64,000 nucleotides of DNA from an uncultured Poribacteria bacterium (GCA_951812525.1 OX638316.1:4904608-4968607), one strand, 5' to 3'. Shown: positions 1,747 to 63,840, counted from the stretch's first letter. Program-made: numbers and translations. Notes: a model not told the origin generated them from the sequence alone.

Positions 1747-2034
1747 CGACTCCTCCTAATAGTTGAAGTGATACGTTTTCGGTTAATCTAAAATTCACTC
1801 GCTCCATAATCTACCATAATGTGGAGCAGGTGTCAAGATTACGATGATTGGAATCAGAGTCATTTATGGTAGATATTAGAATTAACCCAAGTTGCTACTA
1901 ACAGTTTTTTCATTGTAGACAGGGTTTTTAGTCCCTTTCTCCACCCCAGAGGGGTGATATGTCTATAGAAAAATGTTATTTCAAGGCAGTGCACTCCAGC
2001 GGAGTGCTATATCTATAAATACTGGCAACTTGCG

Positions 2035-2146
2035 TTAGAATTAATTGGACATTCTTAAAGAGTGTGAATACCACTAATGAGCATTCACAGAGGCACAAAC
2101 TAACAGTTTATGCTACAAAGATGTCCATTTATTTGTAGGTTTTACC
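2035..2146. repeat. Copy A of a 110-bp inverted-repeat pair. Its partner is at 10849-10958 in the opposite orientation.
   Basis: The reverse complement of 2035-2146 matches 10849-10958 with 3 differences in about 110 bp. It contains an internal palindrome TGTGAAT-N13-ATTCACA. Confidence 0.8.
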
Positions 2147-2149
2147 ATA

Positions 2150-2345
2150 GTTTATATTTGTGAATATTTTCCACCCTTTTTTCCTCATCCAACCCGGTAG
2201 GCACGGTTTTGCGGCGTACTCGACCCGACGAATGCCACACGCGCATTCGGCGTTGATTCATGCGACCTGCATTCCAACCGTGCCGGATACGAGAAAAAGG
2301 TGTCAAACTCCATATATTCTTAAAACTAAATGCCCTTATATTGGA
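2150..2345 (+). repeat. REP/MITE-like element. An AT-rich 5' flank is followed by a GGTAGG-headed hairpin (2196-2286) whose loop carries a 65-nt insertion. It is homologous to 49866-50010.
   Basis: It aligns with 49866-50010 over the 5' flank (tttatatYtgtgaatatttt...aacccggtaggcacggttt) and the 3' flank (aaccgtgccgga...attcttaaaactRaatg.ccctata). The segment 2211-2275 is present only in this copy. Confidence 0.7.
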
Positions 2346-8941: not shown

Positions 8942-9373
8942 TCAAAAGAACATCTCTTCCTTGATTCCCCAGATGGCAGGAGAGGTGATTTCTACACTGT
9001 TCCCCGATGGATCACGAAAGTAGATAGACTTGCCATTTTCCCAACAGATTTCTTTCTCAATGCTTACCCCGTGTGCTGTGAGATGTTCCTTCCATTGATC
9101 GACTTCACGATCCTGTACAGCGAAGGCTATGTGTCCCGCCCCTTTCATCCCATGTCCGGGTGCGTCAAGCGGACCGTCTCCAGAATTAATCGTTGCTTCT
9201 GCATTGAAAAGAAGCACCATTCGATGCCCGCACCCGAGAAAAACGTGGCGATCCTCGAATTTTGAATACAGAGAAAGCCCTAAGACCGTTGTATAAAAGT
9301 GTTCAGCGGCAGCCAAGTCTGTTACATATAGAGCGACTTCAAGAATCTCTGTAACTTTTAATGTAGGCATCAT
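8942..9373 (-). CDS. VOC (glyoxalase/bleomycin-resistance/dioxygenase) family protein
   Basis: It has the beta-alpha-beta-beta-beta module pattern with metal-ligand residues H and E. It is 143 aa. Confidence 0.65.
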   Translation of the reverse strand: MMPTLKVTEILEVALYVTDLAAAEHFYTTVLGLSLYSKFEDRHVFLGCGHRMVLLFNAEATINSGDGPLDAPGHGMKGAGHIAFAVQDREVDQWKEHLTAHGVSIEKEICWENGKSIYFRDPSGNSVEITSPAIWGIKEEMFF

Positions 9374-9513
9374 ATCTCACCGAAGGGATGTGTGGTGAAA
9401 CGTTAGGTTTCACTGGGATTTCAGGGAGGTTCAAGCGTGCTAAGCTGCGAAGGGTTCTGTATTGAACAGGTCAATTTCTTGTGTCTCGTTCAACCCAACC
9501 TACGCGTCCAATT

Positions 9514-10680: not shown

Positions 10681-10848
10681 AGGATCTCCTTGCTACATGG
10701 ATGGGATTTAAACCTAGCAATTCCGTTACTTATGGCAACTTAGGACTTCAAAAGGGTATGATTCTGAAATATCCAAGTTTAATATACACCATCATCGGAG
10801 AAATCGCAACGGAGAAATTTGCGAGCAGGAAGTTTTATTTGTATCATT

Positions 10849-10958
10849 GGTAAAACCTACAAATAAATGGACATCTTTGTAGCATAAACTGTTAGTTTGT
10901 GCCTCTGTGAATGCTCATAGTGGCATTCGCACTCTTTAAGAATGTCCAATTAATTCTA
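10849..10958. repeat. Copy B of the 110-bp inverted-repeat pair (partner at 2035-2146)
   Basis: See copy A. Sequence outside the repeat diverges on both sides. Confidence 0.8.
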
Positions 10959-11032
10959 ATATCTACCAATGATCGACAAATAGATTGGGACAGTGAGACC
11001 TATGGTATTTAGAGTAATCAGGTCAATTAGGA

Positions 11033-19249: not shown

Positions 19250-19345
19250 AGATGCTCTTCTGTAGGACGGATTTCCGAATCCCGACGTATGCTCGCTCTC
19301 CTGTAGGACGGATTTCCGAATCCCGACGTATGCTCGCTCTTCTGT
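19250..19345 (+). repeat. Tandem repeat, about 2.3 copies of a 41-bp unit GCTCGCTCTYCTGTAGGACGGATTTCCGAATCCCGACGTAT
   Basis: It can be read directly. Related copies occur at 37905-37950 on the minus strand and at 43738-43760. Confidence 0.8.
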
Positions 19346-30512: not shown

Positions 30513-30537
30513 AGCGAGGTTAGGAAACCTCACCTAC
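30513..30537 (-). repeat. Instance of the REP-like hairpin family (GGTAGG head on the minus strand)
   Basis: The minus strand reads GGTAGGTGAGGTTTCCTAACCTCGC. Confidence 0.6.
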
Positions 30538-36615: not shown

Positions 36616-36641
36616 GGCGAGGTTGGGAAACCTCGCCTACC
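36616..36641 (-). repeat. Instance of the REP-like hairpin family
   Basis: The minus strand reads GGTAGGCGAGGTTTCCCAACCTCGCC. Confidence 0.6.
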
Positions 36642-43563: not shown

Positions 43564-43804
43564 GGTCAGTATCCTTCTTAACTAAGGTCTTCATTCATCA
43601 TTATACCATATTCTTTGGAATATCTGCCACATCTTTTGCAATGCACAAGATCATTTAGCCTTAGGTTATTGGTTATAAGTTGTTGGTTAATGGTGGTTGG
43701 CAATTGGCAGTTGGCGGAAGGAATAAATCGCGATCGGGAGATCGCTCCTACAGGAAGTCATTAGTACACAGTAGACTGTAGATAGAGATCGTTCCTACAG
43801 CAAC

Positions 43805-44371
43805 TCAATTAAAATACTCGTCTTCCCGAAATTCTGTCCACGACTCAAATATCGGGAATGGACGCGGAAAATCGTCATTGCTAATGTTCAATTTGAATCT
43901 AATTTTCTCGCTATCGAAAAGATCTCGTATTGAAATGGAGATACCCGATGTTTCAATGCAGTTGTGGCACTGTCTCGGAAGTATTTGTTCTGAGCGTGGT
44001 GCCTGAAAGTAAATTCTGTATTCCGAACCGGCTTTTTCAATACGATAATCCTCCGCTGTGATTGACCATTCACTTAGGGCAGTCTCACCTTCAGCATACT
44101 GTGCCCAGAGTTCAACGCCGCTAAAGAAATTAAGGATAACGCCTTTTCTCTTATTAGCGTCTACAGAAGGATCAAATTGGCGAAATGAGCGACCCTTCAA
44201 CTCTGCTTTTACCTGTTCTTCCTCTTCGAGACTGATGGGTACCAACGGATTGGCACACGCAAAGAAGGTTAAACATGAGCAGATAAGAATAAGAAGCATA
44301 ACGGACATTAGGATGTCCGTTGTGTTTGGCTTTAGGGCAAACAATTGGGTGAGCAAGTCGAGTTTTATCAT
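43805..44371 (-). CDS. Hypothetical membrane-anchored or lipoprotein
   Basis: It has an N-terminal hydrophobic segment with a cysteine-rich lipobox-like ICSCLTFFAC. Confidence 0.4.
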   Translation of the reverse strand: MIKLDLLTQLFALKPNTTDILMSVMLLILICSCLTFFACANPLVPISLEEEEQVKAELKGRSFRQFDPSVDANKRKGVILNFFSGVELWAQYAEGETALSEWSITAEDYRIEKAGSEYRIYFQAPRSEQILPRQCHNCIETSGISISIRDLFDSEKIRFKLNISNDDFPRPFPIFESWTEFREDEYFN

Positions 44372-44643
44372 GTATATTTCCTTCCGGTTGTTTCTTTATG
44401 GATTAAATTTTTAGATAATATGTTGGGTTTCACTCATCCTTGGGTAATTTCAGGTTTCTTAATGAATTCAAAAGTCATTTCTCTGTGTGATTTTTTTACA
44501 ACTCCCGTTCAACCCAACCTACACGCTGAGTAAATTGTAGTATTAAACGAGCAAAATCTTCAAAAGAAACAAAAGGACACTTTGGCAAAATTGGATTATG
44601 CTTGATCCATAACGCCTTCTCTGCTAAAATGGGCAGATAATTC

Positions 44644-47300: not shown

Positions 47301-47332
47301 GGCGAGGTTGAGAAACCTCGCCTACCTTTTTT
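47301..47332 (+). terminator. Intrinsic terminator after the transporter gene. It is also a REP-family hairpin.
   Basis: It reads GGCGAGGTTGAGAAACCTCGCC-TACC-TTTTTT. Confidence 0.65.
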
Positions 47333-47377: not shown

Positions 47378-48895
47378 TTATGCCTCAAGGATTGCTTCAA
47401 CAAGGTCCTCTACGGAGGCTTCTTTCGCAACTACATCAACTTTCACACCGCATTCCGCTGCCGTCTTTTGTGTTGTGGGACCGATTACTGCGACTTTGAC
47501 ATCAGCGAGTAACATTGCAGGTGACTGTGTGGGGAACATCTCTAAGAAGTTGGTAACCGTTGAAGAACTAGTGAACGTGACGAAATCAATTCTGCCGTTC
47601 AAGAGGTCAGCTTCGATTTCACCTCGATTTTCGCTTGCCACCTTGACGGTATCGTAGAGGGGAATATCATCGACAAGTGCGCCTTTCTCACGCAAACCGT
47701 TCGGTAGATCGGCAGTGGCAATTTTGGCGCGCGGTAGAAGGACTTTCTTGCCATGTACATCCTCCATTTCAGCGGCGATGGCACTTCCGCGGGAGTGCGA
47801 CGGGACGAAATCAGGGTGGATACCGATGCGGTTTAGTGCTTCAACTGTTTTTGGACCAACTGCACAGATTTTGCTCATGCCGAACGCTCGTACATCCTTC
47901 CCGTTTTCTCGTAAGCGTTCATAGAAAATTTCTACGGCATTGACGCTCGTAAAAACAATCCAATCGTATTCGTTTGTGGCGTGTATATACGCGCTGTCCA
48001 CATCGATTGGTTGAATTTTTATAGTAGGGAATTGGATAACTTGGGCACCGTTGGCTTCCAAAAGGTCAGCGAATTCACTGGCTTGTGCGCGTGCGCGCGT
48101 AACAAGGATTCGCTTTCCAAAAAGTGACTTAGTGTCAAACCATCGGAGTTGCTGGCGTAGTCGATTAACCTCACCGACGACAATCACTGCGGGACTTTTC
48201 AGTTGGGATGCCTCCACCTTTTGGACAATATCTTCGAGTGTGCCTTGGACGACTTGCTGTTGTGGTGTCGTTCCGACGCGGACTAAACTAACAGGGGTCT
48301 GTGGATGTCTGCCGTGTGTCATCAGGCGTTCGGCGATTTGGCGGAGATGCGCAACCCCCATGTAGACGACAAGCGTATCTACTGCTGTAGCGAGACTCTC
48401 CCAATTGATGTTTGAATCCGGGCGCAACGCAGCGGAATGCCCCGTAACGAACGCTACTGATGAGGCGTAGTCGCGATGGGTGACTGGGATGCCTGCATAA
48501 GCAGATGCGGCAATCGCCGAAGTGATACCTGGAACTATCTCAAATGGAATGCCTGCTTCAGTGAGGGCAACTGCTTCTTCGCCACCTCTCCCAAAGATGT
48601 ACGGATCACCGCCTTTGAGACGAACGACGATTTTACCGGCTTTGGCATGCTCAATAAGCAGTTGATTGAGTTCAGTCTGGCGTGTTGTTCGGATTCTTGG
48701 GTCGGGCGCCTGGATTTTATCGGTGTGTGCGGGACAATGTTCGAGGAGTGCATCGTTGAGTAGCAGATCGTAGATGACAACATCGGCGCGTTGAAGGCAC
48801 TCTATCCCTTTAAGTGTGATAAGCTTTCGATCGCCGGGACCTGCACCTACAATGTAAACGATCCCGCCGCTCGGTTTGTTTGGAGATGCGTTCAT
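47378..48895 (-). CDS. cobA-hemD: Bifunctional uroporphyrinogen-III C-methyltransferase / uroporphyrinogen-III synthase (CobA-HemD fusion)
   Basis: The N-terminal part reads [18 protein letters not shown]..., and the C-terminal half is HemD-like. Confidence 0.85.
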
Positions 48896-48905
48896 CAGAA
48901 TTTAC

Positions 48906-49817
48906 CTATAATCTTAACAGTTCAGTTGCCCCACTACTTTGAAGTTTTTCGGCTACGATACTACCCAAGTGTTCTGCTGCGTCTGGCATTCCAGTGGCAG
49001 TCTCCACGATACGATGGATTCCCTCAGGATGGCACACAGCAGCGATAAGAGAAAGTTCACCATTAACATGCCAAGCATACGCCCCAATCGGTACTTGGCA
49101 TCCACCACCGAGCCTTTTCAATACCGTTCTCTCAGCAGTAACCTCAGCGACCGTCTCAGAATCGTTTAGCGGTGCAAGCAGCGTTTCGACAGTGCTATCT
49201 CCTTCCCGCACCTCAACCGCAAGCGCGCCCTGCCCAACAGCGGGGACCATGCGTTCGGTATCAAAATACTGTGTGATAATTTCCGGTTCAAGGAGGCGTT
49301 TGATGCCGGCTGCGGCGAGGATAATTCCGTCGAGGTCGGTTTCTTGAAGTTTGCGTAACCGTGTATCAATGTTCCCTCGGACATCAACGACTCGCAGATT
49401 CGGACGTATATGAAGGAGTTGCGCTTTTCGACGTGGACTTGTGGTACCAATCTTTGCACCACCGAGTAAATCTTCCAACGGAAAACCTGTAGCAGTGATA
49501 AGCACGTCACGTGGGTCTTCCCGCTCCAGAATAGCGGCAATGCAGAGTCCAACCGGCAATTCTGTCGGCAGATCCTTTAGGCTATGGACAGCGAGGTCGA
49601 TGTCGCCTGTTAAGAGTGCGTTTTCTATTTGTTTGGTAAAGACCCCCTTACCGAGTCCAACGAGCGAACGGTCTTGAATGGTGTCCCCAGTGGTTTTGAT
49701 AACTTTTAGGTGTACCTCAAGATATGGAAAATGGGATTCCAATCGACTCTTAACAAACTCCGCCTGCCAGAGCGCGAGTTGACTACCACGTGTGCCGATT
49801 GTGAGCGAGTTGTGCAT
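48906..49817 (-). CDS. hemC: Hydroxymethylbilane synthase (porphobilinogen deaminase)
   Basis: It reads LTIGTRGSQLALWQA...; the dipyrromethane cofactor cysteine region GGCQVPIG is present. Confidence 0.9.
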   Translation of the reverse strand: MHNSLTIGTRGSQLALWQAEFVKSRLESHFPYLEVHLKVIKTTGDTIQDRSLVGLGKGVFTKQIENALLTGDIDLAVHSLKDLPTELPVGLCIAAILEREDPRDVLITATGFPLEDLLGGAKIGTTSPRRKAQLLHIRPNLRVVDVRGNIDTRLRKLQETDLDGIILAAAGIKRLLEPEIITQYFDTERMVPAVGQGALAVEVREGDSTVETLLAPLNDSETVAEVTAERTVLKRLGGGCQVPIGAYAWHVNGELSLIAAVCHPEGIHRIVETATGMPDAAEHLGSIVAEKLQSSGATELLRL

Positions 49818-49865
49818 TAAAATTCCTGTGATTTAAAGGGGAGTATAGAGACTGCAGGGGCATTT

Positions 49866-50010
49866 AGTTTATATATTTACTTTATATCTGTGAATATTTT
49901 TCGTCCTTTTTACCCATCTAACCCGGTAGGCACGGTTTCCTAACCGTGCCGGAAACAAAAAAAAAGGCGTAAAACCTAATAAATTCTTAAAACTGAATGA
50001 CCCTATAGAG
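49866..50010 (+). repeat. REP/MITE-like element between hemA and hemC, homologous to 2150-2345. Its hairpin is 49926-49952.
   Basis: It reads GGTAGG-CACGGTT-TCCTAA-CCGTGCC-GG with conserved flanks. Confidence 0.7.
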
Positions 50011-50027
50011 ACTGAGATATAGGATTC

Positions 50028-51329
50028 CTACACTTCCGAATTATCATCGTTAACATCCAGTGCGAATAATTCCTGTAATGCTTCGACATATTGTGCGTGA
50101 TCAATACTACCATCGTTGACAGCACAGCGGAGATTCTGCATAGGATGGTGAAGCAGTTTTTTGACAATCGCCTGGGTCATGGAAGTAACGGCAGCTTCCT
50201 GCTGATCGGAGAGTGTTGCTTTGTAGAAGCATGCTTGCAATTCGGTGTCGGCTATCTGTTGAAACTGCTGATGGAGTGCCTTAATTGTAGGATTAACCTG
50301 AAAAGTTTGTAATTGGCTGTAGAACCCTTTGGCTTCTTCGGAGACGATCTGTTCTGCCCTGACTGCTTCGTGTTGCCTATCTTTGAGGTTGGAGGCGACA
50401 ACGGCTTCGAGATCGTCAATATTGTAGAGGAAAGCGTGGTCAATTTTACTCACGTCCGGATCAATGTCGCGTGGGACTGCGATGTCGATAAGGAACATGT
50501 ATCGATGCCTACGTTTCCGCATGATGTCAACGAGAGGCTTCCGTTTGATGAGGTAATCGGGGGCATTGGTAGAACTGATGACGATATCGGCATCAACGAG
50601 AAATCCGAGATCGCTATCATAAGGGTGTGGTGTTCCGTTAAACTTCTCGGCAATTGTGACAGCACGTTCATAAGTGCGATTTGCAACAATTACGTTAGCG
50701 GCACCATTGGCGACGAGATGTTTTGCGGTAAGTTCGCTCATTTCACCCGCGCCGATAATAGCGACAGTCTTTCCCTCAAGTGTATTGAAAATCTTTTTGG
50801 CGAGTTCAACGGCAGCGTAACTTATAGAGACAGCACCGGTAGTGATTGTCGTCTCGGAGCGGATGCGTTTGCCGACACTGAAAGCTTTGGCGAAAAGCCG
50901 ATTGAGAACAACCCCAACGCTCCCTGCTGAACGCGAAAGATCGTAAGCGGATTTGACTTGACCCAGTATTTGGGACTCACCGACCACCATAGAATCAAGA
51001 CTCGATGTTACTCTGAAGAGATGCTGGATCGTCTCCAAGTTACGATGAAGATAACACCACTTCTTGAGCGAATCCACACCAATCCGATGGTAGCGAGCGA
51101 GGAATTCGACCAACATTTTGGCAGCTGCGTCGGCATTCTGCACTGAATGTGCAAGTGCATAAACCTCTACCCGGTTACAGGTAGAGAGGACTACTGCCTC
51201 TTGAACCTGATCAGATTCATGCAAACGCTGGAGGAATTCAATAAGTTGTTCATCGGAAAACGCCAATTTTTCCCTAAATTCAATGGGAGCAACATGGTGA
51301 CTGGTTCCGACGGAGACAATCTGGTTCAT
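50028..51329 (-). CDS. hemA: Glutamyl-tRNA reductase
   Basis: It has the catalytic Cys region STCNRVEVY and the NADPH motif IIGAGEMSEL. Confidence 0.9.
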   Translation of the reverse strand: MNQIVSVGTSHHVAPIEFREKLAFSDEQLIEFLQRLHESDQVQEAVVLSTCNRVEVYALAHSVQNADAAAKMLVEFLARYHRIGVDSLKKWCYLHRNLETIQHLFRVTSSLDSMVVGESQILGQVKSAYDLSRSAGSVGVVLNRLFAKAFSVGKRIRSETTITTGAVSISYAAVELAKKIFNTLEGKTVAIIGAGEMSELTAKHLVANGAANVIVANRTYERAVTIAEKFNGTPHPYDSDLGFLVDADIVISSTNAPDYLIKRKPLVDIMRKRRHRYMFLIDIAVPRDIDPDVSKIDHAFLYNIDDLEAVVASNLKDRQHEAVRAEQIVSEEAKGFYSQLQTFQVNPTIKALHQQFQQIADTELQACFYKATLSDQQEAAVTSMTQAIVKKLLHHPMQNLRCAVNDGSIDHAQYVEALQELFALDVNDDNSEV

Positions 51330-62856: not shown

Positions 62857-63558
62857 TTATACGTTTAGTATTACAGCCTTAACTATTTTGCCACTGTATT
62901 TATCAGGACTGGCGAACTCTCTCAGATTCGAATTAGCAATATTCTGATTGATCTCTGAAGAGGTTTTAGATTTTAATTCCAAACCTTCGTCCGGATCATA
63001 GTGGTAATCTTCCAATGCGAGTTCCAAGAGTTCATAAGCTACGAAGAACTCGCGAAACGCTTCCTCTAACGCTTGACGCGAAGCATGTTGTCTGAGCAAA
63101 GTGACCACCCGTGGACGCACGGTAAAGAGATCTTCAGCAATAAGTGTCCAGATAAGTTCGCGAAACTCCTCTGGTGATAACTCGGAGATTTTCTTGTTAG
63201 GCATTGGATCACTTGGTAGATAGCGACTGTTCAGTCGGCGTTGCTTCCGTTCTTCAAGTGTTGTTCTCCGATTAGCGAGTATATAGTCCCGCTGTCGTCT
63301 TAGTTTTTTGGCGAGTGGTGTGTTCGATTCTAAACCATCAAGCGGGTCTTCCTCGTATTTTTCAAACCAAAAGGCGAGGCTCTCATAACCACAGAAAAAT
63401 AAGCGGAACTCTACCTCTAATTCCTCTGTTTTCTCTGCTGAATCAGGGGTGCTAAGCAATGTGATAAGGCGTCCACGCACATCAAAAATGTCATCGTCAG
63501 CAATATACTGGAGCAATTCAGCGATTTCGTCGCAAGACATATTGGCAAGTTTTTTCAC
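62857..63558 (-). CDS. Hypothetical acidic protein composed of two homologous halves
   Basis: There is an internal duplication: EIAELLQYIADDDIFDVRGRLITLL...EFRLFF matches EFRELIWTLIAEDLFTVRPRVVTLL...AFREFF. Confidence 0.4.
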   Translation of the reverse strand: MKKLANMSCDEIAELLQYIADDDIFDVRGRLITLLSTPDSAEKTEELEVEFRLFFCGYESLAFWFEKYEEDPLDGLESNTPLAKKLRRQRDYILANRRTTLEERKQRRLNSRYLPSDPMPNKKISELSPEEFRELIWTLIAEDLFTVRPRVVTLLRQHASRQALEEAFREFFVAYELLELALEDYHYDPDEGLELKSKTSSEINQNIANSNLREFASPDKYSGKIVKAVILNV

Positions 63559-63576
63559 GATTTCTCCGTTACGGTT

Positions 63577-63840
63577 GGAAATTTTAAATGTCTGCTTATT
63601 TTTATTAGGACTTACGCACTTCCCCGGTAGGTGCGGTTTCCTAACCGCACCGATTGCGTCATGTGGAAATTTTAAATGTCTGCTTGTTTTTATTAGGACT
63701 TACGCACTTCCCCGGTAGGTGCGGTTTCCTAACCGCACCGATTGCGTCATGTGGAAATTTTAAATGTCTGCTTATTTTTATTGGGACTTACGCACTTCCC
63801 CGGTAGGTGCGGTTTCCTAACCGCACCGATTGCGTCATGA
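63577..63840 (+). repeat. Three tandem direct copies of an 88-bp unit, each containing a GGTAGG-headed REP-like hairpin (CCCCGGTAGGTGCGGTTTCCTAACCGCACCG). It sits 19 bp upstream of the start of the 62857-63558 gene.
   Basis: Copies begin at 63577, 63665 and 63753 and differ by 1-3 substitutions. An inverted fragment of the unit (TGCGTAAGTCC) follows at 63861. Confidence 0.85.

Follow-up and report, generated by a model that had tools for sequence, protein, structure and literature searches.

ERIC (or IRU), BOX and Correia elements are imperfect palindromes of approximately 100-150 bp that occur within operons, are co-transcribed and fall into size classes resulting from insertions or deletions at fixed positions. 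In the IS200/IS605 family, Y1 (HUH) transposases act on single strands, recognize hairpins close to both ends of the element and insert it 3' of a target of 4-5 nt. Repetitive extragenic palindromes (REPs), defined by the head GT(A/G)G and the palindrome that comes after it (PMC2817692), resemble the subterminal hairpins of IS200/IS605 elements (PMC3333891) and are preferred targets of full-length insertion sequences (PMC1525189; ISPpu9, PMC12288879). We describe here a family of miniature inverted-repeat transposable elements (MITEs) with a GTAG-headed palindrome of REP type at its centre, two copies of which (A and B) lie in a 64,000-nt stretch of DNA from a Candidatus Poribacteria bacterium, together with a separate 64-nt repeat, the micro-unit, that occupies the hairpin loop of copy A. 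The whole stretch, one strand of which was analyzed with coordinates counted from its first letter, is called the window in what follows. The organism is named after its hemA and GNAT homologues, which carry this designation, and the genome loci cited below are Poribacteria chromosomes. The overall reading, namely a MITE family with a recent copy B, an old and twice interrupted copy A and a distinct micro-unit, appears to us quite probable.

A preliminary description of this DNA had noticed that the intervals 2150-2345 and 49866-50010 are homologous, and a formal alignment bears this out, showing a single large gap with a conserved arm on either side. Identity is 88% over 59 nt in the left arm (BLAST E=1.6e-9) and 80% over 71 nt in the right arm (E=3e-10), the latter measured against the same-species copy of B in L001 (a near-identical strain that covers part of the window and is not the same sequence). 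Motifs of 20, 17 and 15 nt are present in both copies, and none of 100 shuffles matched the observed count, which places the similarity of the flanks above chance. Both elements are real; their extents had been underestimated, since copy B runs from 49855 to 50005 (151 bp) and copy A from 1855 to 2338.

These are copies of one family of non-autonomous DNA transposons. Its members are about 140-155 bp long and carry 16-nt terminal inverted repeats with the consensus 5'-CAGRGNCATTTAGTTT, which a terminal-repeat scan detected as inverted pairs at both ends of 10 elements. Direct repeats of 9 bp flank six elements: copy B and the elements at L038 (TAAAAGATT), L093 (CCCTACGCT), L041 (TGCTTGAAT), L084 (TCGATAAAG) and L054:1214-1356 (TCATAAAAC). 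No open reading frame (ORF) of at least 50 aa is found inside copy B; two short ORFs overlap copy A. It is the combination of terminal inverted repeats, a fixed 9-bp duplication, small size, absence of an ORF, multiple copies and a filled/empty polymorphism that identifies the family as a MITE. Besides the two copies in the window, the examined parts of OZ242349.1 hold five copies of approximately 152 bp each, about 80% identical to copy B over their full length; four of these differ from one another by a few bases only, which points to recent bursts. A scan of species-representative genomes with a 20-mer from the left arm had located family members in four Poribacteria chromosomes besides that of the window, OZ242349.1 among them. 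Most matches to this AT-rich 20-mer in the genome collection are chance hits in unrelated AT-rich genomes, and real copies were seen at Poribacteria loci only; viral-contig scans with the core of the insert and with the right end of the MITE gave no matches.

The filled/empty polymorphism is observed at copy B (plus strand; full-length nhmmer match, E=5e-43), which aligns end to end with the five OZ242349.1 copies. Its left terminal inverted repeat, CAGGGGCATTTAGTTT, occupies 49855-49870 and the right one, TAGGGTCATTCAGTTT on the minus strand, 49990-50005. The element lies between hemA (50028-51329) and hemC (48906-49817), which are followed by a cobA/hemD fusion (47378-48895), all three on the minus strand and identified by Pfam, in agreement with the gene placement given earlier. 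The hemA-hemC spacer measures 210 nt in the window and in L001, versus 51 nt in L002/L004, a relative whose hemA is 96% identical to that of the window. The extra 160 nt correspond to the 151-bp element plus a second copy of TAGAGACTG, a 9-mer that is single in the empty site of L002/L004 and perfectly duplicated in the window (49846-49854 and 50006-50014). The insertion of copy B between hemA and hemC is thus a recent event in this lineage.

Copy A is complete and old. It spans 484 bp (1855-2338, plus strand) with two nested insertions and 141 bp without them. An nhmmer profile of intact copies matches it in two pieces, 2148-2210 and 2272-2336, and leaves the first 23 profile positions unmatched. 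Removal of 1867-2149 and 2211-2271 (the loop unit itself maps to 2209-2272) yields a 141-bp reconstruction that is colinear with copy B and aligns with it end to end, left terminal repeat included. The first 12 nt of that repeat, CAGAGTCATTTA, lie detached at 1855-1866, and the right terminal inverted repeat, TAAGGGCATTTAGTTT on the minus strand, was recovered by the terminal-repeat scan at 2323-2338. Flanking the element are GATTGGAAT (1846-1854) and TATTGGACT (2339-2347), a degenerate target duplication that agrees at 7 of 9 positions, and copy A is thus the older of the two copies.

Copy A was hit twice: a small TA-duplicating element entered its left terminal repeat and the micro-unit of about 64 nt entered its hairpin loop. 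The first insertion is a 281-bp composite (1867-2147, minus strand) in which one element contains another. The outer one, element 2, is 122 bp long with ends TGGTA...TACCA; a free copy resides at 10848-10968, and identity to 10848-10959 is 97%. Its insertion point is the TA of CATT-TA-GTTT, and this TA is duplicated (1865-1866 and 2148-2149), as is the TA that flanks MITEs of the IS630/mariner type. Element 3, of 149 bp with inverted ends CNCAAGTTGC, is nested in element 2 at 1886-2034 and flanked by a 10-bp duplication, TTAGAATTAA, at 1876 and 2035.

The second insertion is found within the loop of the central hairpin, the arms of which, GGCACGGTT and AACCGTGCC, do not differ between the two copies. 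In copy B, the hairpin GTA-GGCACGGTT-tcct-AACCGTGCC (49926-49950, plus strand; -16.5 kcal/mol, with covariation across the family) has the loop TCCT at 49938-49941. In copy A, the same arms (2200-2208, with GGTA just before, and 2276-2284) enclose 67 nt (2209-2275), made of the 64-nt unit at 2209-2272 and a leftover loop TCC. An insert had indeed been described in this loop, as 65 nt at 2211-2275; its location stands, and its limits are now 2209-2272. Its own hairpin, CGAATGC-cacacgc-GCATTCG, is found as described, at 2229-2249 on the plus strand, followed by GCGTTGATTC, with the same core in L054 and in metagenome loci. In all six other copies of the same MITE subfamily (subfamily 1) the loop measures 3-4 nt, and the long loop of copy A is therefore the derived state. 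The structure of copy A, insert included, is also present in L107/L108, a relative whose DNA is 98-99% identical and whose GNAT protein, adjoining copy A, is 99% identical. A more distant relative, L109, 86-89% identical, has no counterpart of the copy A region; it carries another element, of 88 bp, whose ends are of the same type.

The hairpin occurs well beyond the MITE. We found 13 distinct sequences fitting the pattern GGTAGG-NNN-GGTT-(3-4 nt, tcyn)-AACC-NNN-CC, and in the 11 of these that were tested, which include six different central triplets of the 5' arm, 99% of cells are paired. Three pairs have changed on both sides; the covariation score is reached by none of 500 shuffles and exceeds all slid controls. 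In the window, solitary members are located on the minus strand at 36616-36640 (GGCGAGGTT tccc AACCTCGCC), outside any MITE, at 47301-47325 (GGCGAGGTT tctc AACCTCGCC) and at 30517, and three tandem 88-bp units in exact register occupy 63576-63839 on the plus strand, each with the hairpin GGTGCGGTT tcct AACCGCACC. MITE arms are absent around the solitary and tandem-array hairpins of the window. Approximately 20 uninterrupted copies were counted in about 380 kb of poribacterial DNA, and all those seen are intergenic. Furthermore, the MITE interior is modular, with subfamilies differing in the REP-type hairpin that they carry: a second poribacterial hairpin, TGTAGGAGCGAGCtgtGCTCGCGAT, inside related MITEs (L084, L054), is nearly the same as the Pseudomonas entomophila REP TGTAGGAGCGGATTCATCCGCGAT (PMC2817692). 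With REPs, bacterial interspersed mosaic elements (BIMEs) and the REP doublets (REPINs) that go with REP-associated tyrosine transposases (RAYTs), the poribacterial hairpins share the GT(A/G)G head, a palindrome whose short middle part is unpaired, and compensatory changes (PMC2817692), as well as occurrence as solitary copies, in tandem arrays and in both orientations. They differ in lying inside an element that has terminal repeats and is flanked by target duplications, and no hairpin-flanked rayt gene was seen.

The micro-unit is a dispersed repeat in its own right. Scanning metagenomes with the 19-nt core of the insert returned 27 loci, which reduce to seven distinct full-unit loci of sponge-type metagenomes, the window included, after removal of chance matches and duplicates; five GC-rich matches (L114, L117, L119, L121 and L135) had no flanking similarity and were discarded as chance. 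An nhmmer profile built on the window copy and the six other loci matches the window unit, TTGCGGCG...CCTGCAT on the plus strand, over its full length (E=3e-19). Copies are 88-100% identical to the consensus TTGYGGCGTACTCGMCCCGGTGAATGCCACACGCGCATTCATACCGTTGATTCATGCGAYGTGCAT, the window copy being at 88%, and the unit is made of three small hairpins. A shorter core, consisting of the central hairpin followed by GTTGATTC, occurs alone and also in other MITEs of the superfamily (L054:1954-2135, L118); its outer stem positions covary. In the earlier description, an insert recurring elsewhere only within unrelated sequence would have counted as a refutation; this was not seen, the insert being a discrete unit with constant ends.

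Four of the seven loci place the micro-unit in hairpin loops, and the stems are all different: GGCACGGTT/AACCGTGCC in the window (stem CAC), GGTGCGGTT/AACCGCAC in L122, identical to L130 (stem TGC), GGCGAGGTT/AACCTCGCC in L132 (stem CGA) and GGGCAAT/ATTGCCC in L129, identical to L136. The CAC, TGC and CGA variants are each found uninterrupted too. All four loop-borne units share one orientation relative to the GTAG head and come immediately after the GGTT (or AATT) at the end of the 5' arm. The other three loci (the L116 group, L134 and L124) lie outside loops. The left flank reads RRTT at seven of seven loci (GGTT five times, GATT once and AATT once), a pattern that rests on these seven loci, several of them in related host repeats; the right flank is not conserved. 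Neither target duplications nor terminal inverted repeats are present at the junctions of the seven loci. The suggestion that the loop is an insertion target for another small mobile sequence, also put forward in the preliminary description, is thus borne out by the recurrence of the insert of about 64 nt in differently stemmed GTAG hairpins and in non-hairpin contexts.

A second dispersed unit of 47 nt (TGTTTTTGCTTGGGGTTTTTGATAGGGTATTTCCTCAATTTC...), unrelated to the first, does likewise. It fills the loop of the TGTAGGAGCGAG...GCTCGCGAT hairpin of a sister-subfamily MITE (L012:18-64), occurs in L122 (160-201 and 307-348) within a loop of this type of hairpin, beside uninterrupted copies, and sits at the centre of a CTGTAGG/CCTACAG palindrome (L111:4709-4750). 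Further loci are L072:1796-1834 and L129:3860-3913; the unit is also found in non-palindromic contexts. The left flank of this unit is always purine-rich (GAG, GGG or AGG). With two unrelated units behaving in this manner, loop occupation is a recurring habit in these genomes rather than a single accident. One further candidate, L051:2432-2700, first resembled another such loop insertion but more likely represents two fragments of the MITE that meet head to head at the hairpin, and was excluded from the count: the left half of a MITE, ending in GGTAGGTGCGGTTT, is joined there to inverted MITE fragments with two further copies of the same hairpin, which suggests recombination between elements at the REP-like hairpin.

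How may these sequences have moved? The ends of the MITE, CAGGGGC/CAGAGCC, and its 9-bp duplication fit the ISAs1 family, which is characterized by CAGGG ends and duplications of 8-10 bp. For one member, ISArsp11, the ends are given as CAGGGCTG... and the duplication as 10 bp (PMC6305408). On ends and duplication length, the ISAs1 assignment is a lead. The family also agrees with MITEs derived from ISAs1 or other DDE elements in having a length of about 150 bp, no ORF, terminal inverted repeats, a duplication of fixed length (9 bp here), near-identical copies and filled and empty sites; it differs from ISAs1-derived MITEs in its modular interior and in being known here without a full-length partner. 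A DDE transposase of ISAs1 type (ends CAGGG, 8-10-bp duplications) would then move the MITE in trans.

For the micro-units, what is observed is the repeated, oriented insertion of discrete units next to a defined flank and without duplication. Oriented insertion after a short flank without duplication is the outcome of IS200/IS605-type transposition, and for this reason we favour mobilization by a single-strand transposase of that kind, while noting that the route itself is inferred. IS200/IS605 elements and palindrome-associated transposable elements (PATEs) likewise lack terminal inverted repeats and target duplications, have hairpins near their ends and insert in one orientation 3' of a short sequence, which would here be RRTT. 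The 64-nt unit differs from IS608 in a much shorter spacing between end and hairpin, and to our knowledge is shorter than any described IS200/IS605 derivative. In the scheme we envisage, a single-strand-specific HUH/Y1 transposase of the IS200/IS605-RAYT kind would act on the loop exposed beside RRTT atop the 5' arm of the REP stem, which would offer an accessible single-stranded target, and the unit would be inserted 3' of RRTT. We may tentatively hypothesize, as a possibility that is still doubtful, that the 64-nt and 47-nt units are ultra-small, non-autonomous elements mobilized by HUH/Y1 enzymes and homing to REP-type hairpin loops 3' of RRTT. If true, few known mobile DNAs would be as small as the 64-nt unit, REP loops would serve as safe landing pads, and the repeats of Poribacteria would make up a layered ecosystem of REPs, MITEs and micro-units.

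The main rival on the movement of the micro-units is repair or conversion at fragile palindromes: loops would be cut, for example by SbcCD-type nucleases, and the units would arrive as filler DNA, by template switching or by gene conversion. Palindromes are fragile sites, two unrelated units of 64 and 47 nt both occupy loops, and neither target duplication, terminal inverted repeats nor a transposase was found for them; moreover, L012 and L122 carry the 47-nt unit in one and the same type of hairpin, as could result from conversion via common arms. However, the 64-nt unit is 97-100% identical among consensus-type copies although the arms around it differ (CAC, TGC, CGA and GGGCAAT), and arms of differing sequence cannot have supplied the homology for a near-identical unit. 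Its orientation is fixed and the RRTT left flank is constant, non-loop sites included, whereas filler DNA would not be expected to be identical each time. This weakens the repair explanation, which we regard as unlikely.

Several observations weigh against the interpretation of these repeats as mobile elements. The target duplication of copy A is imperfect (7/9), and the ends of the micro-unit can be placed only to within 1-3 T residues. As the metagenome loci were fetched with the unit's own 19-mer, the counts of loop and non-loop contexts are no census. For the micro-unit we have no filled/empty pair, the nearest relative differing at the locus (L109) lacking the whole region. Among the 40 ORFs of the window scanned with Pfam, and among the Pfam matches of L001 genes, there is no transposase domain; we found no autonomous partner for either the MITE or the micro-unit, and terminal-repeat pairs in about 380 kb of poribacterial DNA bracket elements of MITE size and no full-length insertion sequence. 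The types of transposase proposed here and any effects on hem expression are inferred throughout. No transposase-like ORF follows a solitary terminal repeat at L093:621. No match to Y1_Tnp was obtained among the window ORFs scanned, no genome-wide search aimed at rayt having been made; and no TnpA-encoding element sharing the ends of the micro-unit was seen in the DNA examined, which did not include a dedicated scan of the collections.

The location of copy B raises a different possibility, namely that the element acts in the heme operon as a structured RNA with a regulatory role, be it an attenuator, a riboswitch-like leader or a small RNA, and that the 65 nt of copy A extend the helix of an expandable stem-loop; the expandable stem-loop and the attenuator had also been voiced in the preliminary description. 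Copy B does lie inside the hemA-hemC-cobA/hemD operon, along with which it would be transcribed; its hairpin is stable (-16.5 kcal/mol, z=-2.6), the stem shows compensatory changes across hairpin copies, and in the minimum-energy fold of copy A the ends of the insert pair, prolonging the stem. However, the relative whose hemA is 96% identical lacks the element in the same spacer, a 9-bp duplication flanks the element, other copies occur at unrelated loci, and the same type of hairpin exists elsewhere alone and in tandem arrays. Rfam gave no match at the gathering score over the whole window, and only chance-level matches at E<=10 (region 1750-2520). No terminator-like site is found in 49750-50100, and no U-tract follows the hairpin in the direction of the operon. 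Compared with shuffled sequences, the centre of copy A on the minus strand, the sense of the downstream gene, has z=-0.3, and the plus strand is marginally better (z=-2.0); the insert alone has z=-1.3 (plus) and +0.7 (minus). As the folds of the copy A centre and the insert are not clearly better than those of shuffles, we make no claim of RNA structure for them. Given close relatives without it, the element is not a conserved regulator of heme synthesis. A regulatory RNA is thus very improbable, and the expandable stem-loop and the attenuator give way to a whole element with terminal inverted repeats and 9-bp target duplications.

As a MITE insertion, copy B is probably co-transcribed with hemA and hemC as a passenger, judging from its position. 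It starts 22 nt past the hemA stop codon (50028-50030) and ends 37 nt ahead of the hemC ATG (49817), and leaves the AGGA ribosome-binding site of hemC intact. The left end of the MITE contains an outward sigma-70-like site directed toward hemC, TTCACA-17-TAAACT (49866-49894, minus strand; consensus match only), whose sequence is conserved in the OZ242349.1 copies. An influence of the hairpin and of this predicted promoter-like site on the expression of hemC is conceivable. What looked like an RNA motif embedded in an operon thus becomes a datable insertion event, and in this lineage a passenger of 160 bp between hemA and hemC is tolerated by the hem operon.

That the long form of copy A is ancestral, copy B and its relatives having lost 65 nt by precise deletion from the loop, we hold to be most improbable: two sequences alone would not decide the direction of the change and long palindromes are deletion-prone, but seven of eight subfamily-1 copies, from two genomes, have the 3-4-nt loop, the 64-nt unit also sits in differently stemmed hairpins and in non-hairpin contexts otherwise unlike the MITE, and hairpin-mediated slippage would be expected to take the stem too.

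How do insertions into REP loops by 64- and 47-nt units compare with what is described? IS1397, ISKpn1, IS621 and ISPpu9/10 likewise land inside REP palindromes in a defined orientation (PMC1525189; PMC12288879), but measure 1-2 kb and encode a transposase, whereas the occupant here is non-coding and of 64 or 47 nt. With ERIC/IRU, BOX and Correia elements, the poribacterial repeats have in common that they are modular, size-variant and intergenic, with no sequence relationship. Unlike the micro-units, the inserted segments of ERIC are not known to us as independent dispersed repeats. Nor do we know of any previous description of a 64-nt non-coding occupant of REPs. A full-text literature search returned no paper linking Poribacteria to MITEs or discussing poribacterial REPs. 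While MITEs, REPs and nested insertions as such are well known, this MITE family and the micro-units appear to be undescribed. For this uncultivated phylum of sponge symbionts, one MITE family, hairpins of REP type and two kinds of micro-unit are new; the class of mobile DNA is ordinary, and its manner of nesting is unusual. The oriented and recurrent occupation of REP loops by the 64-nt unit offers a testable case for target choice in single-strand-specific transposition. For annotation there is also a warning, as nested repeats yield spurious ORFs and seemingly structured RNAs in these genomes.

Further observations concern the MITE and its surroundings. In L054:1150-2140, a stretch of 1 kb contains three elements that share the MITE terminal repeats; only 14 nt separate two of these, and both elements of this close pair are followed by TATAAAAC; this cluster points to a local insertion hot spot or to a preference for TA-rich targets. 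The 88-bp element of L109 (6881-6968, ends CAGGGTCATTCC...AAATGACCCTA) is positioned within about 10 nt of the site of MITE A in the window, and may be either a diverged orthologue or an independent insertion at the same spot. Within the composite insertion of copy A, element 2 has an internal GTAG hairpin, GCATAAACT-gtt-AGTTTGTGC, and element 3 holds two further small hairpins, CACCCCagaGGGGTG and GCACTCCagcGGAGTGC; the end sequence of element 3 (CNCAAGTTGC) also occurs in L054 and L115. Downstream of this nest of repeats, a 778-aa ORF without a Pfam match occupies 1-1744 on the minus strand and runs past the left end of the window; its extent is taken from the gene calls of L107 and L109 only.

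Other hairpins and repeats were noted in the window. Directly upstream of a 233-aa ORF (62857-63558, minus strand) with an internally repeated acidic sequence lies the 88-bp tandem array. We considered this adjoining ORF as a RAYT and rejected it, as it has no Pfam match and a repetitive acidic sequence. Hairpins of the form GTAGGTTGGGTT...AAACCCAAC(A/G), enclosing about 81 nt, are found on the minus strand at 44420-44525 and 9400-9506, and also at L001:16808 and L041:7823. Their arms resemble the Coxiella REP GTAGGTTGGGC...GCCCAAC. The loops at window position 44522 and at L041:7823 are of equal length and have common ends, GAACGRGA...AGTGA, with differing interiors. Both window hairpins are located directly upstream of the starts of genes on the same strand (43805-44371 and 8942-9373, respectively). 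Finally, a 41-bp tandem repeat present in 2.2 copies at 19254-19345 includes a weak GTAGG-headed hairpin, GTAGGACGGATTTCCGAATCCCGAC, and is followed by a G/T-rich, low-complexity stretch of TTGGC type that recurs at 43660-43722.

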